In this document: positions 27,351-50,725 of the stretch, in pieces
How the letters are laid out: every line of letters begins with the position of its first letter
Numbering within the stretch: the stretch's first letter is position 1
Assembly: GCA_963798845.1 (NCBI GenBank)
Contig: CAWCUS010000002.1
Location: 416,001-480,000 of the forward strand
Direction of reading: 5' to 3'
Length of the DNA: 64,000 nt
Source: an uncultured Gemmatimonadales bacterium
GTDB lineage: Bacteria; Gemmatimonadota; Gemmatimonadetes; Longimicrobiales; RSA9
Made by a program: the position numbers and the translations under genes
The notes under the pieces: generated by a model
What the model was told of the DNA's origin: nothing
What the model saw: only the letters and a program-made list of their open reading frames with translations
Database searches by the model: none

Positions 27351-29594
27351 TCAGCCGGCCGGCGGTGTGCCGGGCACGACGTCACCCGTCTTCCCGCGCT
27401 GGCCCGCGACGGTCTCGCCTGCAGGCCTTCCGGCGCCCTCCACAGCCGGTTCCCGCGCCGCCTCGTCGGGGAACAGGCGCTGGTACTCGAGCCAGTGCTC
27501 TTCCTTGAGCCGCTCGATCGAGACCTTCCCCGTGAAGATCGAGGTGTCGAGGGGGAAGATCTCGGGGCGGAAAACCACTCCCCAGGAGTGCCAGAGCACG
27601 ACGACAAGCGTGGCGAACGTGGCCTCGTAGCCGTGCATGGTGCGCATGGCGGCCATCCACTCCCCGGGCACCAGGCGGGTGGCCAGTTCCGGCCACACCA
27701 GCGCGATTCCGGTGAAGGTCATGACCAGGCCGCCCATGAGCAGGCCGCCGTACTCGAACTTCTGGGCGAAGTCGAACTTCCCGACCTTCGGACGCGGCGT
27801 CCCTTCCATGAAGTGACGGACCGTGCCGATCGCCTTGTCGAAGTCATCGAGCGTCGGGAGCATGATCGGCATCCGCCGCTTGCGGATCGCGTTCAGGATC
27901 GCCAGGCCGACATGCACCACGAGCAGCGTCGCGAAGGAGAACCCGGCGATGCGGTGGATCATTCGGGTCGTCCCGATGCTGCCGAAGAATGCGATGACCG
28001 AGTCGGCCACGGCCAGGTCCGGCCGCAGCTGCGGCAGGCCCGTGACCACCAGCGTGATGAACGTGGTCAGCCCCAGGGCGTGCTGCACCTGCTCCCACGG
28101 GGAGAAGCGCCTGATCATGCGTGGCCGCTCCGACTTCTTCCCGGTGAGGCGCGCCCAGCTCGAGCGGATCTTCCGCGACCACGCCCGGTGGCGTTGCCCG
28201 TGGAGAGCCTCGGACAGGATGATCAGCGACAGCCCGATCAGCATGAAGGGGATGAGAAAGTAGTAGAACATGCTGACCAGCCATGTCGGCAGCTGGTTGT
28301 GCGGGCCCGGAGGCTCATGGCCCAGCCACGCGCCCGCCAGCTGAGGGCTGGCGTGCTCGTGGCAGCGCTCGCACACCTCGCTCACCACTTTCTCCTTGCT
28401 CCACCCCACCGCGTGCGCGCCATGGCAGTCCTCGCACGTGAGGACCGCCACCGAGTCCGCGGAGCCCATGGCGTTCATGAAGCCGAGGGTGGTGCCGTGG
28501 TAGTCGTCCTGGTACGACTTCACTACCGTCGTGGACAGGCCGTACGTCTCTGCCAGCTTCTTGTTGCTGTGGCAGCCGATGCACGTGCTGGTGGCCGCCA
28601 TGCGGTCCGGCGCGCTGTTCGTCTCCCCTTGCAGCATGTCCGCGTGGCACGTCAGACACGTGGGCACGCTCTTGTGCGACTCGGGCGCGGTCAGGCCCAC
28701 CGAGTGACCACCGCGCAGGTATTCCTGCATGGCGTCCGCATGGCACGCGGCACACCGATCCGCGATCACCGTCCCCGACAGCTCCGTCACAGGCGGATCG
28801 TCCGCGAAGGAGTGGCAGTCGGTGCAGAGCGGCGCGCCCTCGCCCACTCCCTGGTGCGTATGGTGCGCGGATTCATGGCACGACACGCACGCCGCCGCCA
28901 GCTTCACGCTGTCCCGCGCCACCGGCAGGGCCGCGTCCGGCTCGTGGCACTGAACGCAGTCCACCGCGTTCGCGCCCGTCTTCGGGTGCGACGGGTGCAC
29001 GTCAGCGTGGCACGACACGCACGCGGCGGTCATCGGCGTCGCCCCCTCCTCGCCGGCGCCCGACGCCGCGGTGCGAACTTCCTCCGAGGCCGGGTGCTCA
29101 CGCGTGCCGTGCACGTCGTGGCAGTCCACGCACAGTGGCGCATCCTGCTTCACGCCCGCATGGAGCTCGTGCGGCTGCCCGTGACACGAAGCGCAGCGAG
29201 CCGACAGCTGTGCCTTGGCCCAGTCCAACCGCGGTTCTCCATGGACCACGTGGCAGTCCAGGCACGTCGCGTCCCCCGCGCCGTGTCCCGTCTGTGCCGC
29301 CTCCGTCTCGTGGCAGCTCCGGCAGGCCTTCAGCTGCCTCGCCTTCAGGACGGACCTGTCCGTCGTCTGCAGCCCGATGTGGTGGCAGTCGAGACACGAG
29401 ACCGAGCCCGCATGCTCCGCGGCCTGCGCGCGCAGCACCGCGTCGCTGTCGTGACACGATGCGCACGCGCCTTCCATGTACGGCTGCCTCTGCGGCGCCT
29501 GGGCGCTGAGCCTCCCGGCTCCGATCCCGCCCGCCACCAAGAGGAGCAGCAGTACGGCCCCCCCGGCCGCCCCTCGCATGGATCCGCTCATCAA
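27351..29594 (-). CDS. 15-heme cytochrome c fused to an FdnI/HyaC-like di-heme cytochrome b (CbcL-like architecture)
   Basis: Signal peptide and 15 CxxCH motifs counted. These are followed by TM helices with His ligands (QHALG, IHRIAG, MHGYE, WHSW) and FPLDTSIFTG..EEH. Confidence 0.88.
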   Translation of the reverse strand: MMSGSMRGAAGGAVLLLLLVAGGIGAGRLSAQAPQRQPYMEGACASCHDSDAVLRAQAAEHAGSVSCLDCHHIGLQTTDRSVLKARQLKACRSCHETEAAQTGHGAGDATCLDCHVVHGEPRLDWAKAQLSARCASCHGQPHELHAGVKQDAPLCVDCHDVHGTREHPASEEVRTAASGAGEEGATPMTAACVSCHADVHPSHPKTGANAVDCVQCHEPDAALPVARDSVKLAAACVSCHESAHHTHQGVGEGAPLCTDCHSFADDPPVTELSGTVIADRCAACHADAMQEYLRGGHSVGLTAPESHKSVPTCLTCHADMLQGETNSAPDRMAATSTCIGCHSNKKLAETYGLSTTVVKSYQDDYHGTTLGFMNAMGSADSVAVLTCEDCHGAHAVGWSKEKVVSEVCERCHEHASPQLAGAWLGHEPPGPHNQLPTWLVSMFYYFLIPFMLIGLSLIILSEALHGQRHRAWSRKIRSSWARLTGKKSERPRMIRRFSPWEQVQHALGLTTFITLVVTGLPQLRPDLAVADSVIAFFGSIGTTRMIHRIAGFSFATLLVVHVGLAILNAIRKRRMPIMLPTLDDFDKAIGTVRHFMEGTPRPKVGKFDFAQKFEYGGLLMGGLVMTFTGIALVWPELATRLVPGEWMAAMRTMHGYEATFATLVVVLWHSWGVVFRPEIFPLDTSIFTGKVSIERLKEEHWLEYQRLFPDEAAREPAVEGAGRPAGETVAGQRGKTGDVVPGTPPAG

Positions 29595-29616
29595 CCTTCT
29601 CCTCAGCGTCGTAGAC

Positions 29617-30228
29617 TCACGTGTTCGCCGGCTTGAACCGCTTCGTCACGGCTTCAGCCGCGACCTTGAAGAAGGCCGCGAAGCCGATCACGGGCAGGAA
29701 CATCACGAACGCCAGCCCCAGGATCGGCGCAACCACCAGCCCGGTCAGCACCTGTCCCGTGCTCCCCATCGCCCCGCGTTCCACCGCCGCCGTCCCCTCC
29801 GGCGCCAGCTCGACGGGCGTTACCGCCTCCGCCGCCTTCGCGGCGGCTTCCTCCCGCTCCTTCTTCAGCATGGCCGCAGTCACCACCGCCGCCAGAACCT
29901 CCGGGCTCACCGGCTTGTCCAGGTACTCGAAGCCACCCAGCTCCCGCACCCGACGCTTCACGTCGTCATTGCCGTAGCCCGTCAGAAGAATGAACGGCGT
30001 GCCCGGGGTCGCCCCCTTCATCCACTCCAGCAGCTCCATCCCGTCCACCGTCGGCATCTTCAGATCCGCGACCACGACGTCCACCGGCTCCCGGGTCAGC
30101 CAGTCCATGGCCACCTTCCCATCCTCCGCCGTCGCCACGTCGAAGTCCCGCTCCGAGAGGTATCGGTTCCAGCTCCGGCGGACGGACTCCTCGTCGTCCA
30201 CCACGAGCACCTTGCCGTGCCTTCTCAT
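29617..30228 (-). CDS. Receiver-domain protein with C-terminal hydrophobic/TM tail
   Basis: Motifs VLVVDDE, ADLKMP, LTGYG and KP. Tail LVVAPILGLAFVMFLPVIGFAAFF. Confidence 0.85.
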   Translation of the reverse strand: MRRHGKVLVVDDEESVRRSWNRYLSERDFDVATAEDGKVAMDWLTREPVDVVVADLKMPTVDGMELLEWMKGATPGTPFILLTGYGNDDVKRRVRELGGFEYLDKPVSPEVLAAVVTAAMLKKEREEAAAKAAEAVTPVELAPEGTAAVERGAMGSTGQVLTGLVVAPILGLAFVMFLPVIGFAAFFKVAAEAVTKRFKPANT

Positions 30229-31042: not shown

Positions 31043-32506
31043 TCAGGAGCTCGGGTCGCCCTCGCCGTCAGGATCGGTCTCGCCGGTATCCCCGGAGGGA
31101 GACGTGATGTCGTACTTGCGCATGAGGGCGTGGAGGTTGGGCCGCTGCATGCCGACGCGACGGGCGGCTTCGGAGACGTTCCAGTCGGCGCCGCGCAGGG
31201 CCTTGAGGACGAAGAGCTTTTCGAGGTTCTCGACGGCCTGGGAGCGGATCTCCTTCTTGCGCTCGGCGAGGGTGGCGGCGTCGTCGGGTACGTCGTCCCA
31301 GCGAGCTGCGGAGTGCTCGGCGGCGAGGGGGATGGCCTGGGGTTGGATGGTGCGCCCCTCGGTGAGGAGGACGGCGCGCTCGAGGACGTTTTCGAGCTCG
31401 CGGACGTTGCCGGGCCATGCGTGGGCCTCGAGGAGTGCCATGGCCTGGGGGGAGATGGCGTCGATCTCCTTGCCGACCTCATCGGAGATGCGCTGGACGA
31501 AGTGGTGGGCGAGGAGGGGGATCTCCTCGCGTCGCTCGCGAAGGGGAGGAAGGCGGATGGCGAAGACGCTGAGACGATAGAAGAGGTCGTCGCGGAAGGA
31601 GCCGTCGTCGACGAGCTCCTGGAGGTCGCGGTTGGTGGCGGCGATGACGCGAACGTCGACGGACACGGTGCGGTCGGCGCCGACGGGGCGGATCTCGTGT
31701 TCCTGTATGAGGCGGAGGAGGCTGCCCTGTACCTTGGGCGAGATGGTGCTGATCTCGTCGAGGAAGAGGGTGCCGCCGCGGGCGGCCTCGGCGAGTCCCT
31801 TGCGGTCCTTGGCGGCGCCGGTGAAGGCGCCGCGGACATGGCCGAAGAGCTCGGACTCGAGGAGCGACTCGCTGAGTGAAGCGCAATCGGCGACGACGAA
31901 CGGGCCGCTGTTGCGCCGGCTGTTGTAGTGTATGGCGCGGGCGATGACCTCCTTGCCGGTGCCGGTTTCTCCGGTGACCAGGACGGTGCTGTTGGTGGGC
32001 GCGACCTTGGCGACGAGGTCCATGACCTTGCGCATGGGGGGGGAGGCGCAGATGACGTTGCCGACCGAGTAGCGGGTCCCGAGCTCGGAGCGGAGGCGGC
32101 GTGTGAGGTCGACCAGGTGCTTGCGCTCGAGTGCGCGGGCGGTGGTGACGATGAGGGCGGGCGGGCTGACCGGCTTCTCGAGGTAGTCGAAGGCTCCGAG
32201 CTTGGTGGCCTCGACGGCGGTCTCAATGGTGCCGTAGCCGGTTATGATGATGACCTCGGTCTCGGGCGAGATGTCCTTGGCGTGGCGGAGGAGCTCGATC
32301 CCGCTCATCTCGGGCATCTTGATGTCGAGGAGGAGGAGGTCGAACGTCTCCTTCCGGATCATCTCGAGCCCTTCGCGAGGCGAGGTGGAGGTGTTCACCA
32401 CGTAGCCCTCGCCCGTGAGGACGCGGCGGATGCTCTCGCACACCACTTCCTCGTCGTCGACGGCCAGGACGCGGGGGGGCTCGGTCCAGCTCACTTCATC
32501 CGTCAT
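31043..32506 (-). CDS. Sigma-54-dependent response regulator (REC-AAA+-HTH)
   Basis: Motifs GETGTGKE, ESELFGHVRGAFTGA, LFLDEI, FRDDLFYRL and WPGNVREL, plus a Fis-type HTH. Confidence 0.95.
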   Translation of the reverse strand: MTDEVSWTEPPRVLAVDDEEVVCESIRRVLTGEGYVVNTSTSPREGLEMIRKETFDLLLLDIKMPEMSGIELLRHAKDISPETEVIIITGYGTIETAVEATKLGAFDYLEKPVSPPALIVTTARALERKHLVDLTRRLRSELGTRYSVGNVICASPPMRKVMDLVAKVAPTNSTVLVTGETGTGKEVIARAIHYNSRRNSGPFVVADCASLSESLLESELFGHVRGAFTGAAKDRKGLAEAARGGTLFLDEISTISPKVQGSLLRLIQEHEIRPVGADRTVSVDVRVIAATNRDLQELVDDGSFRDDLFYRLSVFAIRLPPLRERREEIPLLAHHFVQRISDEVGKEIDAISPQAMALLEAHAWPGNVRELENVLERAVLLTEGRTIQPQAIPLAAEHSAARWDDVPDDAATLAERKKEIRSQAVENLEKLFVLKALRGADWNVSEAARRVGMQRPNLHALMRKYDITSPSGDTGETDPDGEGDPSS

Positions 32507-34137
32507 CGGCTCACAGCCATTGCAGGTTCTTTCGCCGTGGGCAGCAGTATGGTGAACTCGGACCACGACTCGCCATCGCTGTCCACCATGATGGAGCCGC
32601 GGTAGCCGCGGACGATCCCGAGCGACACGGCCAGCCCGAGGCCGGAGCCCTGGCCCACGGGCTTGGTGGTGTAGAACGGGTCGAAGATCTTGGAGAAATG
32701 TTCCCTTGGGACGCCCGGTCCGGTGTCGCGAACGCGCAGGCGCACCGCCTCGCTGCCGCCGTCCGGCGGCCACTCCACGCCGGGGAAGGCGTCGCGGCGG
32801 ACCACGTCGCCGCGGATGCGTATCTCGCCGCCGTTCTCGCCCATGGCGTGGAGCGCGTTCATGATCAGGTTGATGAAGACCTGCATCAGCTGCTGCTCGT
32901 TGACGTCGACCACGGGTAGGTCGGGCGCGATCTCCGACTGGACGCGGAAGCCGCCGTTCTGGATCTCGACCTTCACGAGGTCCAGGGCGCGAGCGACAAT
33001 GGGGCCGACTTTGCGCGGCTGCGTCTCGGGCTCTTCCGACTGCTTGCGCGAGTAGTCCAGGAGCTGGCGGATGATGGCGGCGCAGCGGTTCGCCTCCCGC
33101 TCGATCATGCGCAGGTCATCCTGAGCCCCCTCGTTGTCGGGCACGGCCGACTTCACCAGATGGGAGAAGGTGATGATCGCCATGAGCGGGCTGTTCAGCT
33201 CATGGGCGATCCCTGCGGCCACGAGCCCCACGGACGAGAGCTTCTCCGCCTGGAGCACCTGGAACTGCGCCTCGCGCAGCGCCTGCGCCTTCAATGCCAC
33301 GCGCTCCTCCAGCGTGCTGGCCCATTCCTCGAGCTGATGCCGCGAGCTGGCCAGGCTCTCGACCATCTCGTTGAAGGAGTCGGCCAGGATCGCGATCTCC
33401 GGCGCGGTGCCGCGGGGGACCGGGACGGAGCCCGCGCCCTCGACCACACGCCGGGTCGCGCTCACCATGCGCTGGATCGGCCGCCGGACGCTCCAGCGCA
33501 CGAGGAGGAAGAGGAGGAGCGTGATCAGGGTGACGGCGAGGACCGAGATCACGAGGGCGTCGCGGGTGTCCGCGGCCACGCGCTGCTCCGCCGGCGCCAT
33601 GGACATCGCCACGTCGAGGACCCCGAGAACGCTCTGCTGAGCGGGCGTGGCGTGGCATCCTGAGCCCTGACAGCCGAGCTCGTTGCGGATCACGTGGATC
33701 GTGCCCAGGAACCGTTCGCCGTCCGGTCCCGTGTACGTGCGCCAGCGCCGGTCGGGCTCGACCGACGCCCGCGCCTGCCCGTTGGCGTGGCACGTCACGC
33801 ACGCTTCGGAGCCTCGCGGCACCACGCGACCCACCTCCTCCGGATTCGACGAGTACGAGATCCGGCCCTGGCGGTTGTACAGCCGGATGCCCGCGATCCC
33901 CTCGTGCTGGCCCACCATCTCCAGCATTTCCCGCACGCCCTCCCGGTGGTTCAGCTGCATGTCCCGGTGGACGCTCAGGGCAATGGCGTCCGCGATGCTC
34001 TCTGAGCCGTGCACGACTTCCGCCCGCACCTGCTCTCGCTGACGCTGGATCAGGATGAACGAAAGAAGCCCCACGCTCACCAGGGTGAAGAACCCCGCGG
34101 TGAGGGCGATGCGCGTCCCCAAGTTCTTGAAGCTCAT
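32503..34137 (-). CDS. Membrane sensor histidine kinase with periplasmic heme-c motifs and HAMP domain
   Basis: TM1, CVTCH, CQGSGCH, TM2, HAMP, AGIAHELNSP, NLIMNA, DTGPG and FYTTK..G.GLGL. RBS GGAGG. Confidence 0.93.
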   Translation of the reverse strand: MSFKNLGTRIALTAGFFTLVSVGLLSFILIQRQREQVRAEVVHGSESIADAIALSVHRDMQLNHREGVREMLEMVGQHEGIAGIRLYNRQGRISYSSNPEEVGRVVPRGSEACVTCHANGQARASVEPDRRWRTYTGPDGERFLGTIHVIRNELGCQGSGCHATPAQQSVLGVLDVAMSMAPAEQRVAADTRDALVISVLAVTLITLLLFLLVRWSVRRPIQRMVSATRRVVEGAGSVPVPRGTAPEIAILADSFNEMVESLASSRHQLEEWASTLEERVALKAQALREAQFQVLQAEKLSSVGLVAAGIAHELNSPLMAIITFSHLVKSAVPDNEGAQDDLRMIEREANRCAAIIRQLLDYSRKQSEEPETQPRKVGPIVARALDLVKVEIQNGGFRVQSEIAPDLPVVDVNEQQLMQVFINLIMNALHAMGENGGEIRIRGDVVRRDAFPGVEWPPDGGSEAVRLRVRDTGPGVPREHFSKIFDPFYTTKPVGQGSGLGLAVSLGIVRGYRGSIMVDSDGESWSEFTILLPTAKEPAMAVSR

Positions 34138-34309
34138 GGACCTCCAGCGACAGAGGCCGGGCAGGGGCTGGCTGCGCATTGACGTTCACCTCCGGCGCAA
34201 ACCGTGTCAATGCGGAAATGCACGTGTGGGAGCGTGGGGGGAAGCCCCGCGGGCTGCACCATCCGACTTCGAAGCCCGGACGCTGCAAGGGACGGGGCAG
34301 CGGGCCGGG

Positions 34310-35059
34310 TCAGGCGGGGCCGGGCCAATCGAAGGTCGTCACGCGGACGACAGGGGATTCGAGGGCGACGGCGGCCACGTGGGCAGTGGGGGCGGGGATC
34401 TCGACCACGGCCCAGCCATTCGTGCGCTGGTGCATTTCGGACGTGAGGGCCAGGAGGCCGGGCCCGTTCGTGGCATCGGGGTCGACTGCGAAGGAGCGCA
34501 GGTCGCCGGCGCCAAGACCCAGCCCGACGCCCTTCACGAAAGCTTCCTTCATGACCCAGTGGCGCAGGAAGAGACGCGCTCGCCCGGGCGGGGTGGTGGC
34601 CAGGATCCGGGCCAGCTCGGGGGCCGCGAAGAAGCGCCGGGCGATACCCTCGGCGTCGGGCGCGCGGTCCAGGCGCTCGACATCCACGCCTACGCGTGCG
34701 TCCAGCGCCACGGCGACCAGCACCGCGTCTCCGGAATGAGAGAGATTGAATTCGACGCTGCGCTTCGCGCTTCCGGGCGCCAGGCGCGGCTTCCCGTGCG
34801 GGCCGGTGCGGAAGCGGATCGTGTCGGGCTCGAGGCCGGCGTACCGGCCCAGAATCACTCGAAGGAGGCCGTGCGCGATGCGGAAGCGGAGGCCGTCGGC
34901 CTCGCGACGGAACCGGTCCGCGCGGTCCCGCTCGTCCTGGGAAAGCAACGGGGGCAGCGTCGCCTCGAGCGTCGGGTCAGGCCCGCAGCGGGCGCGCCAG
35001 ACGTGGACCTCGCCGGGGCCGACCGGTGGCGTTCCGGCCGGAAGGAGAGGTGGGTTCAT
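34310..35059 (-). CDS. Sfp-type 4'-phosphopantetheinyl transferase (appears in frame with the NRPS in this sequence)
   Basis: Motifs GKP, FNLSHSG, VGVDVE and WVMKEAFVKG.G.GL. Its own ATG is at 35059. Confidence 0.9.
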   Translation of the reverse strand: MNPPLLPAGTPPVGPGEVHVWRARCGPDPTLEATLPPLLSQDERDRADRFRREADGLRFRIAHGLLRVILGRYAGLEPDTIRFRTGPHGKPRLAPGSAKRSVEFNLSHSGDAVLVAVALDARVGVDVERLDRAPDAEGIARRFFAAPELARILATTPPGRARLFLRHWVMKEAFVKGVGLGLGAGDLRSFAVDPDATNGPGLLALTSEMHQRTNGWAVVEIPAPTAHVAAVALESPVVRVTTFDWPGPA

Positions 35060-38000
35060 GAGGCGGTTCGGCCCTGCTTGGGGGATCCGGCCCGGCGCAG
35101 CAGGCGGCCGAGCAGGCGGCCCAGAGGCTGACTGTCGTCCGTGAGCAGACTCGAGATGGTCGCCGCTCATGGAGTACACTTCGGCGCGATCGGCGACCCG
35201 CGCCCAGAGCCGAGGTGATGTCGAGGAGGAGACTGTCTCGTCCGCTTCGGCTGCTACGACCACAAGCTCGCCGCGAAAGTGTTCGGGAACGTATCCCCGC
35301 ATGGCCCGAGCGAAGTAGTCGGCACGTGCCAGGTGCTCGTTGTGGGGGCGAGGCGGCGTCGGATCTGCAGACCCTCTCAGCCGGCCGACGGTGTGGATGA
35401 GTCGTGCCGCGACGCGTCTGCTCTCTCCCACCACCCAGGTGGCGAGGACCGCCGCCCGCCGCACGCCGGCGAGGTGCGGACCCGCCGTCGCGCCCGCGCC
35501 GATCCAGCCGGAGACGAGCCGTTGGGCCGACCTGCGCGTGGCGTGGAAGAGGGCGCGCCGGCGCTGAGACGGGAGGTGAACCATCCGGGAAACCCGGTCC
35601 AGGAACGCGGCGTAGCGGGCCAGCCCGACGTTGCGACCCGGCGCATCCACGAGGACGAGCAGTTCCACGGTCTCTCCCGCTGCCACGAGTCGCTGGGCGG
35701 CTTCGAAGGCCACCACTCCGCCGTTGCAGTGTCCGCCGAGACGATAGGGTCCGTGCGGGCGGACCCGGCGCACTTCACGGAGGAGGTCGTCGGCCATTTC
35801 TTCGATGGTTTCCGGACCACCTGGCTGATGGGGGTGGACGATGTAGACCGGCTGACTCTCGTCGAACTCGGCCACCAGCCCGCGAGAGTAGAGGCCCGCC
35901 CCGTTGAAGTCGCCGTGGAAGAGGAAGAACGGGGCGATCCGGGTGTCGCCCTCCCGAACCCGGACGACGGGCGAAGCGGTTTCCAACTCCTGACTGGCAA
36001 GGACCCGGGCGAGGTGAGCCACGGTGGGCTCTTCGAACAGCACCCGCAGCTCCAGATGCCGGCCGGTGGCGGCTTCCACACGCCGGATCATCTCGAGTGC
36101 GAGGAGCGAATGCCCCCCCAGGTCGAAGAAGCTGTCCCGGGCGCCCACGGCCTCGACGCCGAGGAGAGCCGTCCAGATGTCAGCGATCTGGCGCCTGAGC
36201 GGATCTCCCAGGGGGCGAGCCCCGCTGGCCCGTTCCGTACCTGTCGTCGTCAGCGCCTGCCGGTCCACCTTCCCGCTGGCCGTGAGCGGGAGAGCGTTCA
36301 GCGTGAACAGAACGCTCGGGACCATGTAGGCCGGGAGGTGCTGGCGGAGCTGGTCCTGCAATCGCGTCCGGTCCAGGTCGTCCGGACCTGCCACATAGGC
36401 GACGAGGTGGCGGCCCGGCCCTTCGCCCTGGAGCACGACCGCCGCGTCGCGCACGTCCTCGCATCGCCGCAGCGCCCCCTCCACTTCACCCAGCTCGATG
36501 CGGAATCCCCGCAACTTCACCTGGGTATCGAGTCGCCCGCCGAACTCGAGCTCCCCGTCCAGGTTCCAGCGAGCGCGGTCGCCGGTGCGGTAGAGCCGGC
36601 GACCGGGTGAGTCGGCGAACGGGTCGGGAATGAAGCGGTCCGCACCGGCCGTCGCGGCGCCGAGATAGCCGGCGGCCACACCTGCGCCGCCCACGTGCAG
36701 GTCGCCCCAGAGTCCACGTGGCTGTGGCTTTCCGCGGGAGTCCAGGACCCAGGCGGTGGAGTTGGCGATCGGCCGCCCGATCGGCAGTGTGGTCGCGCCG
36801 GGCGGGACGCCCCTTACGGCATACCAGGTGGAGAAGGTGGTGTTCTCGGTGGGGCCGTAGACGTGGAGCAGGCGCTCGGGCGGAGATCCGCTCTCCAGCA
36901 CACGACGGGCGGCCTCCGCGTCGGCGGTCTCGCCCCCGAACAGGAGATGGCGGAGGGAGCCGAACGCCGCGGGGCGCTCACGGGTCACCTGATTGAAGAG
37001 AGCGGTGGTCAGGAAGAGCGTCGTGATGCCCCGCTCGTGGAGGAAACGCTCGAGCTCGCGAGGCGAGTGCAGGCGCGGGCCCGGAATGGTCAGGCGAGCG
37101 CCGTTGAGGAGTGCTCCCCAGATCTCGAACGTGGCGGCATCGAAGCTGGGTGTGGACGCCTGGGCCACCACGTCGTCCGCCCGGAGCTCCACGTAGTCGG
37201 AGCCCAGGACCAGTCGCACGATCGCCCGATGGGGCACGGCCACGCCCTTCGGCCGGCCCGTGCTTCCGGACGTGTAGATGACGTAGGCGAGGTCGTCGGC
37301 GGCCCCGGCGACGAAGGTCGCGGGCGGCGCCTCGTCTGCCCGTTCAGGATCGGCGCCGAGCTCCACGACCTCGACGCCGGTGCCCCGGAGGCCAGGAAGC
37401 GCCGGGGTCGCCGCGATCACGCGAGCTATGGCCGCGTCCTCGATCAGGAGCTCCAGCCTCTGCTGCGGGAGCATCGGGTCGAGCGGGACGTAGCAGCCGC
37501 CCGCCTTGAGGATGCCGAGCAGCGCGACCACCAGCGGCGCGCCGCGCTCCATGCACACGCCCACGCGCTCGCCGGGTTCGAGCCCCGAGGCAAGCAGACG
37601 ACGGGCGAGCGCTCCACTGCGGGCGTCGAGATCGGCGTATGTGAGGCGCTCGCGCGTGTCCTCCACGGCCACTGCGTCGGGCGTCCGGGCGGCCGCGGCG
37701 GCGAACAGCTCGTGCACCGTCCCTTCCGGGAGCGGCCGCCCGGTCCGGTTCCAATCGAGCGCCCACCGGCGCTCCTCATCGGAGCAGAGGTCCAGGTCGG
37801 CCACGGGCCGGTGAGGGTCCGCCAAGGCCGCGGACACGAGCGTGAGGAAGAGCTCGAGGAAGTGGGCGGCTGTGCGGGGCTGGAAGAGGTCGCCGTCGTA
37901 TTCAAGACGCAGCTCGAGCCCGTCCGCGGCGGGAGAAGACGCGAGGAAGAGGTCGAACTTGGAGGTGCCCGTGTGCAGCGCGATGCGCTCCACCACGAGG

Positions 38001-41000
38001 CCATGCAGCCGCGGCACGCGCCGACCGTCCGGATCCAGCGCGAATGCCACCTGTGTCAGGGGGTTGGCGCTGCCGTCCCGCTCGACCCCGCTGGCCTCGA
38101 CCATGGCCTCGAGGGGCACCGCCTCATCGCCGTAGATCGCGAGCATGGCGGCCCGAACGCGGCCCAGGGCGTCGGCGAACGACAGCTCGCCGGCGAAATC
38201 GACGCGGATCGGAACCGTGTTGGCGAAAAGGCCGATGAGCGGCTCGAGCTCCGGGCGGGGTCGACCGGCCATCGGCGTCCCGACCACGATGTCATCCTGG
38301 CCGGTGAGCCGGGAGAGCAGCACCTGGAACGTGGCGAGGAGCGCCATGTGGAGGGTGCATCGCTCCCGCTCGGCAAGCTGGCGAAGCTCTTCCAGCAGGT
38401 GATCGGGCAGCCGCGCTCGACACTGTCCACCGGCCTTGCCACGCGTTCCCGCGCGAGGCCGGTCGGTGGGAAGCTCGAGCGCCCGGGCTCCGTGCAGCCG
38501 CTTCGACCACCGTTCGAGGCCCGGCCGCAGGAGTACCTCGTGCCGACGCTGCCAGGTCGCGTAGGCACCGTAGGAGACAGGGACATCCCGCAGGCTCGGC
38601 TCGGCACCCGTCACGGCCGCCCCGTAGAGCGTTTCCAGCTCCTCGAAGAGGATGTTCCCGGACTCGCCATCGGCGGCGATGTGGTGAATACACAGGAAGA
38701 GCGCGTGCTCGCCGGCGCCGTGCCGGAAGAGCCGGGCGCGGAAGGGAATCTCCTTCCCCAGGTCGAACGGTCGGCGCGCCTCCTCTTCCAGCCGTCGCAT
38801 GACCGTGGCGCGGGGATCCTCCGGGCCGCTGGCGATGTCTTCGACCACGAGCTCAAAGGCGTCTGCACGGGTGGTGACCTGGACGGGCCCGTCCGCCCCC
38901 TCCCGGATGCGGGTCCGGAGCGGCTCGTGCCGCTGGACGATCCGGCGCAGGGCGTCACTCAGCGCCGGGGCATCCAGCGGGCCGTCAATACGGAATGCCC
39001 ACGGGATGTTGTACGTGGCCCGTCCCGGGTCCAGCCGATCGAGGAACCACAAGCGCCGCTGCCCGAAGGAGAGGGGGGCGAGACTATCGCTCCGGGGATC
39101 CACCGGAGGGAACGTGAAGCCCGTACTCTGGCGGCCGGGTTCCAGGAACGCGGCCAGGCCCGCCACGGTGGCATGCTCGAAGATCGCGCGGAGCGGGACC
39201 TCCATGCCGAGCGCGGCCTCAGCGCGCCCCGCGACCCGCATGGCCGCCAGGGAGTGGCCGCCCGCTTCGAAGAAGTCCACGTTCCGCCCGATCGGCCGGA
39301 CCCCGAGAACGCCCTCCCAGATCTCACACAGCGTGGTCTCCAGCGGGTTCCGGGGCGGCTCGTGCGGTGTCGCCCCGACCGGATCGGGATCCGGGAGGCT
39401 CCGCCGGTCGACCTTGCCGTTGGGCAGGAGGGGCAGCTCCGCGAGCCGCACGAAGGCCGCCGGGATCATGTGTTCCGGGAGGGAGCGGCGCAGGTGGGCA
39501 CCGAGGACGTCCGGGTGGAACGCGCCGCGGGCAGGCACCACGTAGGCCACCAGACGGAGGTCGCCCGCGCCGTCCCGCCGCGGGATCACCACCGCGTGGC
39601 GCACCGAAGGATGGCTCCCCAGGGCCGCCACGACCTCTCCTGGCTCGATGCGGAACCCGCGGATCTTGACCTGGTCGTCCGCCCGGCCGAGGAAGTCCAG
39701 GGCGCCATCCTCGCGGCGCCGGACGATGTCGCCGGTCCGGAACAGGCGCGCTCCTCGCACGGCCGAAAACGGGTCCGGGATGAACCGTTCTGCCGTCAGC
39801 TCGGGGCGATCGTGGTAGCCCCGGGCGACGCAGGATCCGCCAATGTACAGCTCGCCGGCAACCCCCGGCGGCACCACATCGAGCCGCTCGTCAAGGACGT
39901 GCACATCCACGTTGGCCATGGGGTGCCCGATCGGGACCACGTGTCCTTCCCCTGACGTTGGCCGCGTCAGCTCCTGGACGGTGGCCCAGACCGTTGTCTC
40001 CGTCGGCCCGTAGACATTGAAGAGGGACGCGCCCCGGCCATGACGGCGCCAGAGTGCGAGCCGGTCCGGGCGGGCCGCTTCGCCCCCAATGATCATGGCG
40101 CGCACTGCGGACGGGATCTCGAGACCATCCTCCTCCATGGAAACCACCATCTCGTGCCAGAAGGCGGTGTTGACCCGAAGCAGCGTCACACCTCTCTCTT
40201 CGCACGCGCGCAGGAAGCGGGGGACCGATGCGAGCATGGCGGGCGTGCACACCACCACGGCCGCGCCGGCCGCGAGGGGGGTGAAGATCTCGGCGACGGA
40301 CGCGTCGAAATTGATGGACGAGAACTGGAGCCCGCGGTCGGCCGGCCCGACCTGGTACAGGTCCCGCCCGGCCCGGACCAGGTTGACGACGGAACCATGC
40401 GTGACCTCCACACCCTTGGGCGTGCCCGTGGAGCCTGAGGTGTAAATGATGTAGGCGAGCGGGTCCGGGGGAGCGGGCCCGGCCGCGCCGGAAGGAGAAG
40501 TCCGCGGAGCGTCGTGCGTTCCCGGGTCGTCCAGGCAGAGGGCGGGGATCGACTGGAGCGGCAGGCGCGAGCGCAGCCGCCGGGTTGTGACGATGGCCTC
40601 CATCCCCGAATCGTGGGCGATGAACGCCAGGCGCTCCGACGGATAGTCGGGGTCGAGGGGGACATAGGCGCCGCCTGCCTTGAGAATCCCGAGCAGAGCA
40701 ACGATCTGGCCCGGGGACCGTTCGACGAAGACACCGACGCGGCTTTCCGGGGCGAGCCCGACCGCTCGCAGCCGCGCGGCGAGCTGGTCGGCCCGGTGGT
40801 TCAGGTCGTCGCGAGAGAGCACCTCGCCCTCGCCGATGACGGCCGTGGCTCCCGGTTCGCGGGCCGCCTGCGCCTCCACCAGGGTGTGGATGCGGGACTC
40901 AGGGGAAAGGGGGCGGCGGGGTCCGCGGCCGGCCTCGATCAGGCGTGCGCGCTCCTCGGGTCGGAGCAGGGATGCAGCGGCGATCGCGCCGTCGGGGTCG

Positions 41001-42433
41001 GCCACGAGACCCTCGAGGAGTGTCTCCAGCTGGGTCAGGAGGCGGCGCACGTAGCCGGGATCGAATAGCTCGAGGCTGTAGGTCAGAACACACTCGAGTC
41101 CTCCGTGTGCGCGCGTGACGTCCAGACTGAGATCGAGCAGGCTCCGGCCGTGGAAGCCCGCGCGCGCTTCCACGTCCAGGCCCTCGAACTCCGCCGGTGG
41201 GTGCGGGAGGATCCGGTCGTTGAACGCAATCTGGAAGACCGGCGTGATGCCGGCCGCACGAGTGAGCCTCAGGTCCGCGACCACGCGATCGAACGGCACG
41301 GCCTGATGGGCGAAGGCCTCCAGCAGTCCGCTACGGACCCGATCCACCACCTGTCGAAACGACGGGTCGCCCGAGAGCTCGGAGCGAACCGGGAGCATGT
41401 TGACGAAGTACCCGACCAGATCCTCCTGCTCGCTGCGAGTACGGCCGGCAATGGGCACGCCCACCACGAGGTCGCGAGCACCGGAGTGGCGAGAAAGGAG
41501 GACCTGAAACGCGGCCAGGAGAACGGCGGAGTCGGTCGCGCCCTGCTGCCGGCCCAGCTCCCGCAGGCCACTCACCAGTCGCTCCGGCAGACGCCGCTCC
41601 TCCTGAGCCGCCGCATAGGTGCGGTGCGCCCTGCGCGGGCGGGTGGGCGGGAGCGTCGACTCCGGCGGCGCACCGTGCAGCCGGAGTCGCCAGTAATCGA
41701 GCTCGCGAGCGAGCCGGCCGGACTCCAGGCGCTCCGCTTCCCAGGCGGCGTAGTCACCGTACTGGATCGGGAGGGGCGGGAGCGTCGGATCCCCTCGCAG
41801 GGCACCCCGGTAGGCCGCAGCGAGATCACGCAGGAACACGCCCGTGGACCAGCCGTCGAAGGCAATGTGGTGGAATACCAGGTGGAGGAGGTGGTCTCCG
41901 GCCGCGAACCGAAACAGCTTGGCCCGGACGACCTCTCCAGCCGCAAGATCGAACGGCCGGAGCGCATCGGACCTCGCCTCCTCCCGCCAGGCCGCGGTCT
42001 GGGCTACGTCCGAATCGCCGACCCCTGCCGATCGCCGTTCCGACGCCGCCACATCGACTTTCGGCAGCGCCAGCCCGTGGCCCGGAACGACCCGCTGACT
42101 GAGGGCGCCGTCGGTCCCCATCTCGTAGCACGTGCGCAAGATCTCGTGTCGACGAACGACCTCCCCCAGCGCGCGCTCCAGGGCTGCGACCTCCAACGGC
42201 CCCCGCAGTCGGACTTCCTTGGGGAGGTGGTAGGCCGCGCTGCCCGGCTCGAGTCGCTCGAAAAACCAGACCTGCTGCTGCCGGGACGAGAGCGGCGCTT
42301 CGCTGGCCGCCGCCCTGTGCGGGATCGGCGCCCCGACGGCGGTGGGCGGCGCGCCCTCGCGGGCGCGGCGAGCGAGCATCTCCCGGGCCGCAGGGGAAAG
42401 CCCGGAAAGGCCCTCCGGTAACGGGTCGGCCAT
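35056..42433 (-). CDS. Two-module NRPS C-A-PCP-C-A-PCP-TE (probable 1-nt insertion near 35152 merges it with the PPTase)
   Basis: C domains HHIAFDG and HHIAADG. A domains YTSGSTG.PKG and YGPTE (twice). PCPs GGHSL (twice). TE GHCNG..GDH. Confidence 0.93.
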
Positions 42434-43314
42434 CAGGGCGACGGGTGGTCGGGGTCCACGGTCACGACGGTTCCGGCCCCGGGGCGCGCGCCGCCACGGA
42501 GGTTCTCCTCGAGAATGGCGTTGCAGTCGGCCACTCCGGGATAATCGGGGCCCGCCCCCTCCAGACGTCCGCCGTCCGCAGCGAGCCGTCTCAACGCCTG
42601 GTCGATGGAGTGCTGTGCGGCGAACAGACAGGGCGTGCTGTAGATCGCCAGGTCGATCCCCGCCGAGGCCAGCTCCTCGAGGGATCGCGGCTCGGCCTTG
42701 CCCCCGGCGATCTGGTTGAATGCCCAGGGACGGTCGACTTCCCTTCGCAGTGTGCGGACCACCTCGAGATCGACCCCGTCCACCAGCACGGCGTCGGCGC
42801 CCGCCTGTGCGAAGGCCCGTACTCGCCGAAGCGCCTCCGCCGGCTCGCTCGCGTCGGTCCGGGCAACGACCAGGAGATCGGAGCGGGCCTCGAGCACCCG
42901 CTCCAGTTTCGACAGGTACTCATCCAGCTCCAGCAGCTGCTTGCCTTCGAGGTGACCGCACTTGCGCGGGCGCCGCTGGTCCTCCAGCACCACGCCGGAC
43001 GCGCCGGCCTGCTCGAGTGTGGCAGTCACGCGGGCGGCCACCACGGCATCGCCGTAGCCGTCGTCGATGTCCACCAGGAGGTGGTGGTCCGGCAGGACCC
43101 CGCGGACCCGGTGGACCAGCGAGACGATGTCGGGCCATGCCACGAAGCCCACGTCCGGCAGCCCGTAATGGCTGGCGGCCAGGCCGAAGCCACTGAGGAA
43201 CAGGGCATCGAAGTGGCGTGCGGCCAGGGACGCGGAGAACACGTCGTAGATGCCGATGAACGGGACGGTGGCGCCTCCCGCCAATCGTTCCCGCACCTCT
43301 GTGCCGGCGCTCAT
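42433..43314 (-). CDS. Isocitrate lyase/PEP mutase superfamily lyase, oxaloacetate acetylhydrolase-like
   Basis: Motifs LSGF, VDIDDGYG, LEDQ..RKCGH, VARTD and AIYS. Confidence 0.8.
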   Translation of the reverse strand: MSAGTEVRERLAGGATVPFIGIYDVFSASLAARHFDALFLSGFGLAASHYGLPDVGFVAWPDIVSLVHRVRGVLPDHHLLVDIDDGYGDAVVAARVTATLEQAGASGVVLEDQRRPRKCGHLEGKQLLELDEYLSKLERVLEARSDLLVVARTDASEPAEALRRVRAFAQAGADAVLVDGVDLEVVRTLRREVDRPWAFNQIAGGKAEPRSLEELASAGIDLAIYSTPCLFAAQHSIDQALRRLAADGGRLEGAGPDYPGVADCNAILEENLRGGARPGAGTVVTVDPDHPSP

Positions 43315-45161
43315 GATTCTGCGGCCATGAGAAGCTCGATTTCCGTGGCGGCACCCGCCACCGTCGGGGCATCGAAGAAACCGAGAAGCGGCAGCTCGAC
43401 CCGGAGGGAGTCCCGGATGCGCGCCACCAGCTGTGTGGCGGTGACCGAGTCCCCGCCAACCGCGAAGAAGTTGTCGTGGACGCCGGGCGGATCGCATCGC
43501 AGGACCTGCCCCCAGAGCGCCGCCAGGACTTCCTCGACCGGGGTCCGCGGCGCGACGTGGGGCGTGTCCACGCGGACGGGATCGAATGCCGGGATTCCCA
43601 GCCGGTCTGCCAGGCCAATGCGCTGGAGCTTGCCCGTAGCGCCTTTCGGGATCTCCTCCAGGAAGAGCACGCGACGCGGAACCTTGAAGTAGGCGAGGCG
43701 CGTGGCAACGAACTCCCGCAGCGCCCGCTCGGAGACATCGGCGTCCGGTCGGAGCACCACGGCCGCGGCCACATCCTCGCCCAGCTGCGGGTGGCGGACG
43801 GCGAACGCCAGCGCCTGCCGCACTGCGGGGTGCCCCATGAGCGCCTCGTCCACCTCCACCGGCGCGATCTTCTCGCCCCCGCGGTTGATGATCTCCTTGA
43901 TCCGGCCGGTCAGAACCAGGAACCCGTCCCCGTCCAGGTACCCCTGGTCTCCCGTCCGGAACCAGCCATCGGTGAAGGCGGTCCGGTTCGCCTCCGGGTT
44001 GTTCGCATAGCCGGCGGTCACGTTGGGGCCCCGGATCGCGACTTCCCCCGTCTCGCCCGTGCCCAGCCTCTCCCCCGCAGGGCCCAGGATGGCAACATCG
44101 GGTCCCGAGGCCGGGCCCACGGAGCCCGGCTTCCGTCCGCCCGGCGGCAAGGGATTGCTTGCGATCTGGTGCGCCGCTTCGGTCATGCCGTACGCTTCCA
44201 CCACCGGCACGGCGAAGACCCGCTCCAGCTCCGCCAGCGTGGCCCGCGGGAGCGGGGAAGACGACGAGCGGATGAACCGGAGCCGCGCCCGATCGATCAC
44301 CTCCCGGTTCGCTTCCGCCCGCGACAGGATCGCCTGGTGCATGGTCGGCACCGCCGTATACCACGTCGGTGCCGTCTCCTCCAGCCAGTCGAAGAAGTCG
44401 GGAGCCTGGAATCCCGGCGTGCAGATCACGCTGCCGCCCGCACGCAGCGACGAGAGGGCCGCCGCGACGAGGCCATGGATGTGGAAGAGGGGCATCACGT
44501 TCAGACAGCGATCGGCCTCGGTCAGGCCGAGCGCGCTCCCGACATTCGCCGCCGAAGCAGAGAGGTTGCCGTGGGACAGCGGCACCTGCTTCGGCCGCGA
44601 GGTCGTGCCGGAAGTATGCAGAACGAGGGCGACATCCGGCGCCTCAGGAGGCCTGGCCTCGCCGGCCACGCTCGCCGCCCCAGCGCCGCGGAGTCGCACG
44701 AGGCCCGCCGCCGCCTCCTCCTCCTCGTTCCGAACCGCTTCGAGCACCGGGATCCCCAGGCGCCGCGCCACCTCCCGCGCCGGGGAGTCCAGCGTCCCGT
44801 CGATCACCAGGATCCGGGCCGCCAGGTCCCCCAGGTAGAATTCCAGCTCGGGCGCCTGGTACGCCGGGTTGAGAGGCGCGGCTGCGCCCGCCGAAGCGGC
44901 CGCCAAAAAGAGGACCGCCGCTTCCGGGCCGTTCGGCAGGACCAGAGCTACCGCATCGCCGCGGCGTATTCCCCGATCGGTGAGGTCGGCCGACAGATCG
45001 CGCATGCGTCGGTCGAGTGACTCGTACGAGAGCGGGGGGCGTCCCGGCGCCGCGATGGCCGCATGCGCGGGCGTGTGCCGGGCGTGCCATGCGAGCATGG
45101 AGGGGAGGGTCGCCTCCGCTCCGGGCGCGGACAGCGCTGGGCTACCATTGAATCGGGTCAT
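43311..45161 (-). CDS. Oxalate--CoA ligase-like adenylating enzyme with C-terminal carrier (PCP/ACP) domain
   Basis: Motifs LHTSGTTSRPK, PLFHIHGL, WYTAVPTMHQ, RFIRS.S, EAYGMTEAAHQ..SNPLPP and INRGGEKI. C-terminal NFFAVGGDS. Confidence 0.85.
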   Translation of the reverse strand: MTRFNGSPALSAPGAEATLPSMLAWHARHTPAHAAIAAPGRPPLSYESLDRRMRDLSADLTDRGIRRGDAVALVLPNGPEAAVLFLAAASAGAAAPLNPAYQAPELEFYLGDLAARILVIDGTLDSPAREVARRLGIPVLEAVRNEEEEAAAGLVRLRGAGAASVAGEARPPEAPDVALVLHTSGTTSRPKQVPLSHGNLSASAANVGSALGLTEADRCLNVMPLFHIHGLVAAALSSLRAGGSVICTPGFQAPDFFDWLEETAPTWYTAVPTMHQAILSRAEANREVIDRARLRFIRSSSSPLPRATLAELERVFAVPVVEAYGMTEAAHQIASNPLPPGGRKPGSVGPASGPDVAILGPAGERLGTGETGEVAIRGPNVTAGYANNPEANRTAFTDGWFRTGDQGYLDGDGFLVLTGRIKEIINRGGEKIAPVEVDEALMGHPAVRQALAFAVRHPQLGEDVAAAVVLRPDADVSERALREFVATRLAYFKVPRRVLFLEEIPKGATGKLQRIGLADRLGIPAFDPVRVDTPHVAPRTPVEEVLAALWGQVLRCDPPGVHDNFFAVGGDSVTATQLVARIRDSLRVELPLLGFFDAPTVAGAATEIELLMAAES

Positions 45162-45326
45162 CGGGACACATGGGTGGACGGCGCCGCTTCAAACCACCGG
45201 CCGACGGGGTCGGACAGGCACGGGCGCGCCGGGATGCAGGGACTTCGACGTGCCACGTACGATAATGCGCGTCCCGCCGGCCGTCGACCCTGGCGCCGTC
45301 CGACATCAGACATTTTCCTCCGGGGC

Positions 45327-45355
45327 TTGAGAGGAAGAGGGGGAGGCCCTACCTT
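45327..45355 (+). promoter_or_regulatory. Putative sigma-70 promoter of ffh
   Basis: TTGAGA-N17-TACCTT. Confidence 0.55.
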
Positions 45356-45429
45356 TATAGGCTCTTTGGCCACCGGTGGCGCACGCACGTCGTTCGTCCG
45401 CCGTCTCTTCTCGCATACGGGCGCTCGGG

Positions 45430-50517: not shown

Positions 50518-50725
50518 TTTACCACCCTACTGCGTGACGATTCGCCAGACGCGCCCGTCACCGCGCGGTACGCCTCGTGCGCCTTCGGCTTCGCTCCTTT
50601 CCGACCGCCGCGGGCGGCCCGGGGGTGGGCGTGGAAAGGCTCGCGGAGTGAGGAAAATCACCGCGGTCGCATAGGGGCGATCCCCGACTGGCCCGGTCCA
50701 TAGGCCTGTCGTACCTTCTGGGACC

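Follow-up and report, generated by a model that had tools for sequence, protein, structure and literature searches.

A small nonribosomal peptide synthetase cassette with a putative oxalate-loading ligase and a coupled lyase in an uncultured Gemmatimonadota bacterium

We examined a 64,000-nucleotide stretch of DNA (the window, G+C content of about 70%) from an uncultured Gemmatimonadales bacterium, positions 416,001 to 480,000 of contig CAWCUS010000002.1 in assembly GCA_963798845.1. It carries a 10.9-kb cassette of four genes that is predicted to make a short peptide capped with oxalate. All four genes lie on the minus strand, and as assembled they form three open reading frames (ORFs) spanning positions 34310-45161. 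The first gene (43311..45161, 616 amino acids), referred to here as the loader, encodes an adenylating domain resembling AAE3 and other oxalyl-CoA synthetases, fused to a peptidyl carrier protein (PCP) domain. It is followed by a gene for a 293-amino acid C-C lyase of the phosphoenolpyruvate (PEP) mutase/isocitrate lyase superfamily, a candidate oxaloacetate hydrolase (42433..43314; PF13714, 1.3e-33), and by a nonribosomal peptide synthetase (NRPS) in which condensation (C), adenylation (A), carrier (T) and thioesterase (TE) domains are arranged as C-A-T-C-A-T-TE according to Pfam and NCBIfam (35056..42433). The last gene encodes a 4'-phosphopantetheinyl transferase (PPTase) of 249 amino acids counted from the ATG at 35059 (34310..35059), which has the AASDHPPT_N and ACPS domains and the length (about 230-250 amino acids) of Sfp-type enzymes. 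The NRPS ends at 35056 only if one base near 35153 is ignored; as assembled, positions 34310-42433 hold a single 2707-amino acid ORF with the domains C, A, T, C, A, T, TE, AASDHPPT_N and ACPS. The stop codon of the loader overlaps the start of the lyase gene as ATGA, and the lyase stop overlaps the NRPS start as TGATG. An earlier note on this DNA had described the same gene content, order and overlapping stop and start codons, all of which are borne out by the ORFs, the Pfam matches and the sequence of the junctions.

The cassette is a self-contained unit and the only NRPS found in its genome (G000; 4.26 Mb, 96% complete), where a whole-genome domain scan detected Condensation domains over the cut-off at this locus only. 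Among 40 relatives of the window genome the full cassette is present in one, G001, a member of the same genus, which has the identical four-gene set between ffh and a histidine kinase gene. The same four genes in the same place in G001, together with the recurrence of loader, lyase and NRPS cassettes in other phyla, indicate that the arrangement is not due to chance.

The adenylating domain of the loader (about 43629-45092) and its PCP (about 43347-43529, with the GGDS motif at 43446-43457), both on the minus strand, are covered by the Pfam families AMP-binding, AMP-binding_C and PP-binding. The ligase motifs quoted in the earlier note (LHTSGTTSRPK, PLFHIHGL, WYTAVPTMHQ, RFIRS, MTEAAHQIASNPLP and INRGGEKI) are present in the translation, as are GGDS in the carrier domain of the loader and HHIAFDG in the first C domain of the NRPS. 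From such motifs the protein had been assigned to the AAE3/Pcs60 type of ligases, and comparison with all solved structures agrees with this, the top three being oxalyl-CoA synthetases: Arabidopsis AAE3 (5ie0; 424 bits, E-value 9.2e-126), Lathyrus OCS (6qjz; 419 bits) and yeast Pcs60 (8aff; 371 bits). The best ligase of another specificity is malonyl-CoA synthetase with 233 bits, 191 below the best oxalyl-CoA synthetase. Among NCBIfam models the loader gives only a sub-threshold match to the FadD7 family.

The residues of the substrate pocket point in the same direction. In a study of these enzymes, the oxalate pocket of Arabidopsis AAE3 is described as Val215-His216, Cys288-Ser289, Ala313-Met314, His319 and Lys500, and Ser289 and His319, which contact oxalate, are said to be conserved only in the oxalyl-CoA synthetase subfamily (PMC8905533). 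Two alignments place I228, H229, S299, S300, G325, M326, H331 and K511 of the loader at these positions. Ser289, His319 and Lys500 are thus kept as S300, H331 and K511, and these contact residues are invariant in 18 homologues of the loader; the other five positions are identical or conservatively replaced (V215I, C288S and A313G). Oxalyl-CoA synthetases transfer the acid to CoA, whereas the loader has, as the earlier note had stated, a carrier domain of its own, a PP-binding domain with GGDS fused to the C-terminus, so that the acceptor is presumably the tethered phosphopantetheine. The protein resembles an oxalyl-CoA synthetase and yet is presumably a loading didomain of an NRPS. In silico, its assignment as an oxalate-type enzyme is well supported.

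We searched 5.8 billion proteins for relatives of the loader using a word-based method, which gave at least 8000 candidates. The best 120, which were examined, are 56-82% identical to the loader and nearly all have the same A-plus-PCP architecture, and the nearest named homologues among the matches listed are from Gemmatimonadota. A census of loci using one genome per species, limited to the best 80 loader loci, separated 23 PCP fusions from 57 stand-alone ligases. The stand-alone bacterial ligases are 54-62% identical to the adenylating domain of the loader, and in 53 of the 57 loci a gene for a PanE/ApbA-family reductase lies directly downstream. In one of these loci (L088:8472-11257) the ligase has the same residue as the loader at each of the eight pocket positions. 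In Methylobacterium extorquens, PanE is described as an oxalyl-CoA reductase (PMC9485241). By analogy, the pairing fits a route from oxalate via oxalyl-CoA to glyoxylate and suggests that this bacterial clade handles oxalate. Other neighbors are Tct transporters, FAA-hydrolase-family genes and GntR regulators, found in 9-13 loci each; neither oxc nor frc occurs beside the stand-alone ligases, so neighbors beyond the PanE-type reductase add no oxalate signal. The stand-alone AAE3-like ligases, found in Alphaproteobacteria and other groups, are commonly annotated merely as acyl-CoA or fatty-acid ligases.

The same comparisons bear on an explanation that we regard as improbable, in which the lyase or metabolism would provide a different very small acid as starter, such as glyoxylate, oxamate or malonate, and the product would be a different N-acyl dipeptide. 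Lyases of the isocitrate lyase type typically release glyoxylate or pyruvate, which counts in favor of such a starter, as do the three substitutions relative to plant AAE3 among the eight pocket residues (V to I, C to S and A to G). The Lathyrus enzyme is measurably active on glyoxylate (PMC8905533), and the literature examined yielded no characterized bacterial member of this ligase family. On the other hand, the equivalents of Ser289 and His319 are invariant, the loader shares its pocket with ligases that stand next to PanE-type reductases (53/57 loci), and the best malonyl-CoA synthetase match falls 191 bits short of the best oxalyl-CoA synthetase (233 versus 424).

According to their record titles, the 23 fusion loci come from Gemmatimonadota, Verrucomicrobiota, Chloroflexota, Cyanobacteria, Acidobacteriota, 'Deltaproteobacteria', Actinomycetota, Gammaproteobacteria and Planctomycetota; loader cassettes therefore span at least nine phylum-level groups, mostly represented by uncultured bacteria. 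A C domain lies just downstream of the loader in 10 of these loci, a TE follows the PCP directly in 8, and a lyase homologue is present in 3, one of them a fragment only. The genome G010 (98% complete) has a loader and a single C-A-T-TE gene. A quick phylogeny of C domains, examined for a clade of loader-adjacent members, left 26 of 38 inner branches open; the label required 10 changes, against 14.1 for shuffled labels, and 8 of 500 shuffles needed as few. This poorly resolved tree is not used as evidence here. In one locus of a metagenome-assembled genome labeled 'delta proteobacterium' (L055:9890-18097) the loader, whose PCP appears to sit in the next frame, is followed by a C-A-T-TE protein fused to a methyltransferase domain and then by a PPTase. 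The A-domain code of this protein, DILQIGAVW, resembles the code for Gly, and its product may be of the N-oxalylglycine type, perhaps methylated.

The NRPS itself (all coordinates on the minus strand) begins with C1 (40940-42304, HHIAFDG at 41852-41872), followed by A1 (39395-40876), T1 (39143-39334), C2 (37724-39079, with HHIAADG), A2 (36245-37666), T2 (35984-36181) and the TE (35156-35950). Both C domains keep the HHxxxDG motif, in agreement with the intact N-terminal C domain that had been noted earlier, and every carrier keeps its Ser motif; Pfam detected no epimerization domain in the protein. The layout is that of a linear (type A) NRPS with an acyl starter loaded in trans, and it is the same in G001.

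Specificity codes were extracted from an alignment of 33 A domains, in which positions were anchored on motifs using the GrsA numbering. A2 has the code DAFFLGVTF in both the window genome and G001, which we take to be Ile/Val/Leu-like by the Stachelhaus codes; the Ile or Val predicted for module 2 in the earlier note is consistent with it. A1 has DAARIGVVW in the window and DVASMGGVF in G001 (L011:7290-8789), differing at 5 of 9 positions between domains that are 73% identical, and the first residue may thus differ between the sister species. Our guess for A1 of the window is an acidic side chain, based on the Arg found at position 278 and a scaffold like that of Orn/Lys-type domains.

It was overlooked in the earlier note that the nucleophile of the TE is a cysteine, located in the motif GGHCNGG (35717-35737, residues 2233-2239), with GDH within 35147-35167. 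The presence of a TE for release stands, but given a Cys nucleophile plain hydrolytic release is an assumption. Among the loader-associated loci 16 of 24 TE matches have a Cys nucleophile, and the combination of Cys with a following Asn is confined to the window, G001, L051, L093 and L119, each of which also has the lyase. In eight loci where the TE follows the loader PCP directly, without a C domain, there are six TEs with Cys and one with Ser, the count for L031 being unclear. TEs with a Cys nucleophile are known from SulM (sulfazecin), with the motif Gln-Cys-Asn, and ObiF1 (obafluorin) (PMC11298585). The TE of the cassette shares with both the Cys in a GxCxG elbow and with SulM the following Asn; it differs in having His-Cys-Asn and in that the last module is aliphatic, rather than specific for diaminopropionate (Dap) or a beta-hydroxy acid. 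A beta-lactam or beta-lactone TE was considered and rejected by the criteria given in that study (PMC11298585), because the residue before the Cys is His and the last A code is aliphatic; with an aliphatic last residue such a closure is not expected. Release may occur by hydrolysis or by another cyclization.

The 3' end of the NRPS gene contains one extra base relative to G001 (35152..35154, minus strand; blastn and three-frame translation). The counterpart in G001 is a 2475-amino acid NRPS with a separate, overlapping 249-amino acid PPTase, and in the window the extra base shifts the last approximately 33 codons of the TE and joins NRPS and PPTase in one reading frame. Without it the frame encodes HLSLLTDDSQPLGRLLGRLLRRAG...S-stop, which is homologous to the C-terminus in G001, and the corrected stop codon TGA overlaps the PPTase ATG at 35059 as ATGA. 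The frameshift near 35152 that the earlier note had assumed is therefore real relative to G001, by nucleotide alignment as well as by homology of the displaced frame, and this homology and the overlap of the stop with the PPTase start show that its correction of the frame was right. By our own count the displaced frame has a third-position G+C content of about 0.83 versus 0.61, which together with the homology to G001 identifies it as the ancestral one. Public sequencing runs matching the locus comprise three DNA runs from one study, with no RNA run listed; their contigs are short and of low depth, cover positions 34942-35312 to 0.36, zero and zero, and, as they barely touch the site, do not discriminate between assembly error and real mutation. 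If the insertion is real, the cassette would be a recent pseudogene in this genome, in which the last approximately 33 TE residues after the catalytic His are replaced, the PPTase is fused and release is blocked. The assembly does contain the extra base, and the displaced frame with its homology and higher third-position G+C would be the trace of the recently lost sequence. On the other side, the remainder of the 8.1-kb ORF is intact with every catalytic motif kept, and indels of a single base are frequent among assembly errors; we think a pseudogene unlikely.

The lyase has the Asp cluster DIDDGYG, the gating loop EDQRRPRKCGH with the catalytic Cys, and ARTD. These correspond to features of oxaloacetate acetylhydrolase (OAH), namely the PEP mutase/isocitrate lyase fold, an Mg-binding Asp cluster and a K(K/R)CGH Cys loop. 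We compared the lyase with solved structures both singly and as a 20-sequence profile. The profile scored 149.5 bits with a Bacillus CPEP-mutase-like protein (4iqd), 148.5 with petal death protein (PDP), 147.9 with dimethylmalate lyase (DMML), 134.1 with OAH and 131 with methylisocitrate lyase (MICL), which points to a separate subfamily within the superfamily. OAH was reached by the profile search, but not by a search of the Protein Data Bank (PDB) with only the C-terminal third of the sequence. The invariant Ser226 of the lyase (IYS) aligns with a Ser of OAH 3lye (IFS) and of petal death protein (AHS), in a column occupied by Pro or Cys in DMML, 4iqd and 3eoo (MICL-type chains). Two reports link OAH activity to a conserved Ser of the active site, Ser281 in A. 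niger numbering (PMC8224569, PMC3256194). The identification of the lyase as an OAH in the earlier note is thus suggestive only: the KxCGH loop and the Ser agree with it, and the roughly equal distance from all solved members and the substitutions peculiar to this family, given below, do not. As a source of oxalate the enzyme is plausible, with support from its linkage to the loader.

In order to determine whether the lyase is tied to the loader, we examined metagenome loci that contain relatives of the lyase, taking the best 80 (57-67% identical). In 17 loci the lyase is in a loader or NRPS context, in 30 in another context, in 2 no ligase is present, and 31 are too short. The other context consists of an unannotated ORF of approximately 460 amino acids, an ANL ligase of approximately 505 amino acids in which the oxalate-pocket residues Ser and His are absent, the lyase itself, and a membrane protein of sulfatase/EptA-like type (for example L129:6561-12655, L151:6764-10828 and L170:6303-12392). 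This arrangement resembles an envelope-modification operon, and its lyases form one tight clade. We also built a quick maximum-likelihood tree with 84 rows, in which one 50-row clade (Shimodaira-Hasegawa-like approximate likelihood ratio test, SH-aLRT, 98) takes in all 30 rows with the other context. All 21 NRPS-linked rows fall outside this clade, where they account for 21 of the 23 informative rows. Tree and contexts together indicate that lyases of the subgroup found in the window are nearly always coupled to this loader. The codes of the neighboring A domains vary widely, so that the lyase accompanies the loader and not a given amino acid. The observed linkage of lyase and loader fits a supply role.

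We propose that the cassette makes an N-oxalyl dipeptide by means of an oxalate loader, oxalate supplied by the lyase, the NRPS and its Cys-type TE, a reading to which we give about an even chance. The lyase, translationally coupled to the loader, would most likely cleave oxaloacetate into oxalate and acetate and so supply the starter. The loader would adenylate oxalate and thioesterify it onto its own PCP instead of CoA, the Sfp-type PPTase having primed the three carrier domains. C1 would then join the oxalyl group of oxalyl-S-PCP to the A1-activated amino acid, after which C2 would add a residue with a branched aliphatic side chain (Ile/Val-like). The N-oxalyl dipeptide would be released in linear or cyclized form by the Cys-type TE. 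While domain content, gene coupling and the conservation of pocket and cassette can be read directly from the sequences, the substrates, the lyase reaction, the mode of release and the product, an N-oxalyl-Xaa-Ile/Val-like dipeptide, are what we infer from them. The overall interpretation in the earlier note, an oxalate-primed and self-supplying NRPS cluster, is partly supported. None of these conclusions depends on genomes that are flagged as unpublished.

A number of observations weigh against this reading, most of them concerning the lyase. It is about equally distant from every solved member of its superfamily and no closer to OAH than to the others. In its family DIDDG replaces DxDTG, an Asp (Asp179) replaces the Glu of the xxEG/FPE motif and an Ala replaces the Glu of N-x-x-E, and the correspondence of the Ser226 column to the published marker Ser281 is an assumption. 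Close relatives of the lyase adjoin a ligase of non-oxalate type in 30 of 49 informative loci. In species-representative genomes 20 of the 23 loader-PCP loci are without a lyase, and a search of G010 with the window lyase as the query found no homologue anywhere in that genome. The predicted oxalate function of the bacterial loader-type members is drawn from sequence and context, the A1 code differs from that of G001 at five of nine positions, and the frameshift may disable the TE in this genome.

Several of these points are shared by an alternative that we consider rather unlikely, though somewhat less so than a different starter acid or a pseudogene. In this case the loader loads oxalate that comes from the environment or other metabolism, and the lyase is not its source, serving instead the cleavage or formation of another 2-oxo or 2-hydroxy acid, the removal of oxaloacetate, or tailoring. 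The lyase-free loader clusters (20/23, and none found in G010), the substitutions at sites conserved in OAH, DMML, PDP and MICL, and a sister clade of lyases that works beside a non-oxalate-type ligase are all in line with it. It leaves unaccounted for the ATGA coupling of lyase to loader, the NRPS or loader linkage of 21 of 23 informative rows in the subgroup, and the Ser common to OAH-active enzymes, and it is not obvious what else a C-C lyase would be needed for in a three-enzyme pathway. For the supply reading, it follows from the majority of loader clusters without a lyase that the lyase is an accessory and not a requirement. The description as self-supplying in the earlier note does not hold in general, as the lyase-free loci and G010 demonstrate.

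The proposed pathway can be compared with several known systems. In lipopeptide initiation a separate acyl-AMP ligase and a carrier feed the N-terminal C domain, as in DptE and DptF of daptomycin. The cassette is similar in that an adenylating enzyme would load an acid on a carrier and the first C domain would N-acylate the first amino acid; it would differ in the use of a C2 diacid instead of a fatty acid, in the fusion of ligase and carrier, and in the dedicated supply enzyme that we propose to be coupled to them. Fungal OAH (3LYE) and petal death protein (1ZLP) share with the lyase the superfamily fold, the KxCGH loop and the Ser position, whereas the lyase has Asp for Glu in xxEG and DIDDG for DxDTG, is bacterial and is NRPS-linked. 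The stand-alone ligases paired with PanE-type reductases have an identical pocket (L088) but are without a carrier domain and are found in a catabolic context. The plant and yeast enzymes AAE3, LsOCS and Pcs60 (PDB 5IE0-5IE3, 6QJZ and 8AFF) belong to the same family as the loader and have the same oxalate-contacting residues. In the grass pea route to beta-N-oxalyl-diaminopropionic acid (beta-ODAP) activated oxalate also ends as an N-oxalyl amino acid (PMC8905533, PMC9485241). The cassette differs from this route in having a fused PCP and not CoA as the acceptor of the loader, and an NRPS C domain in place of a BAHD acyltransferase, and in being a bacterial system with a predicted activity. 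A full-text literature search, judged mainly from the listings it returned, found no paper on an oxalate-primed bacterial NRPS, which agrees with the statement in the earlier note that this was not recognized as a characterized cluster.

The cassette represents an NRPS with a trans-loaded acyl starter from a widespread, uncharacterized family. A broader generalization, which we put forward tentatively and with clearly less confidence than the pathway itself, is that the AAE3-type loader marks a large bacterial class of NRPS and NRPS-like systems that would N-oxalylate amino acids or short peptides. Many of them would have a Cys TE and a subset an oxaloacetate hydrolase of a new subfamily, and the products would be 2-oxoglutarate mimics or polycarboxylate chelators, some of the N-oxalylglycine type. 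To our knowledge, oxalate in bacteria has so far figured chiefly as a source of carbon or as an acid that is secreted; if the proposed reading is right, it would also be a building block of nonribosomal peptides. The loader, recognizable by the Ser and His of its pocket together with the fused PCP, would then be a simple sequence marker for mining this class of products. N-oxalyl amino acids are classic 2-oxoglutarate analogues, and hence enzyme inhibition or metal binding would be possible roles of the products. The lyase would be the first bacterial oxaloacetate hydrolase of the isocitrate lyase superfamily, and the TEs would add further examples of Cys thioesterases. As the cassette is small and has its own PPTase, it should be easy to express.

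In the remainder of the genome, the PEP_mutase family has a single other match, which is weak; no oxalyl-CoA decarboxylase reaches the cut-off in G000, and no MbtH-like gene was found in this 96%-complete genome. The genes adjoining the cassette include none for transport, tailoring or resistance, and no gene in or beside it bears on the role as inhibitor or metallophore proposed in the earlier note. To the right, by Pfam matches of the neighbors, lie the divergently oriented genes ffh, rimM, rplS and rnhB, and the intergenic region between loader and ffh (45162..45375) is presumed to be the promoter region of the cassette. A scan for the sigma-70 consensus gave no promoter-like site, and a terminator scan gave two terminator-like sites only, fewer than in shuffled sequences. 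To the left are genes for a histidine kinase and a sigma-54 response regulator, followed by multihaem cytochromes. An actinomycete origin of the DNA, which the G+C content of 70% had brought to mind, was rejected in view of the flanking sigma-54 activators and multihaem cytochromes and of the Gemmatimonadota origin of the nearest named homologues among the matches listed. The kinase/regulator pair adjoins the cassette in both the window genome and G001; in G007, G010 and G014 the kinase orthologue and ffh are on separate contigs, and an ancestral adjacency of ffh and kinase, with the cassette as an insertion, cannot be demonstrated from these three genomes. Multihaem c-type cytochromes and sigma-54-dependent two-component regulators are found at positions 27351-29645, 50675-52541 and 31043-34179 of the window, and one of the neighboring multihaem cytochromes is fused to a cytochrome b561-like domain.

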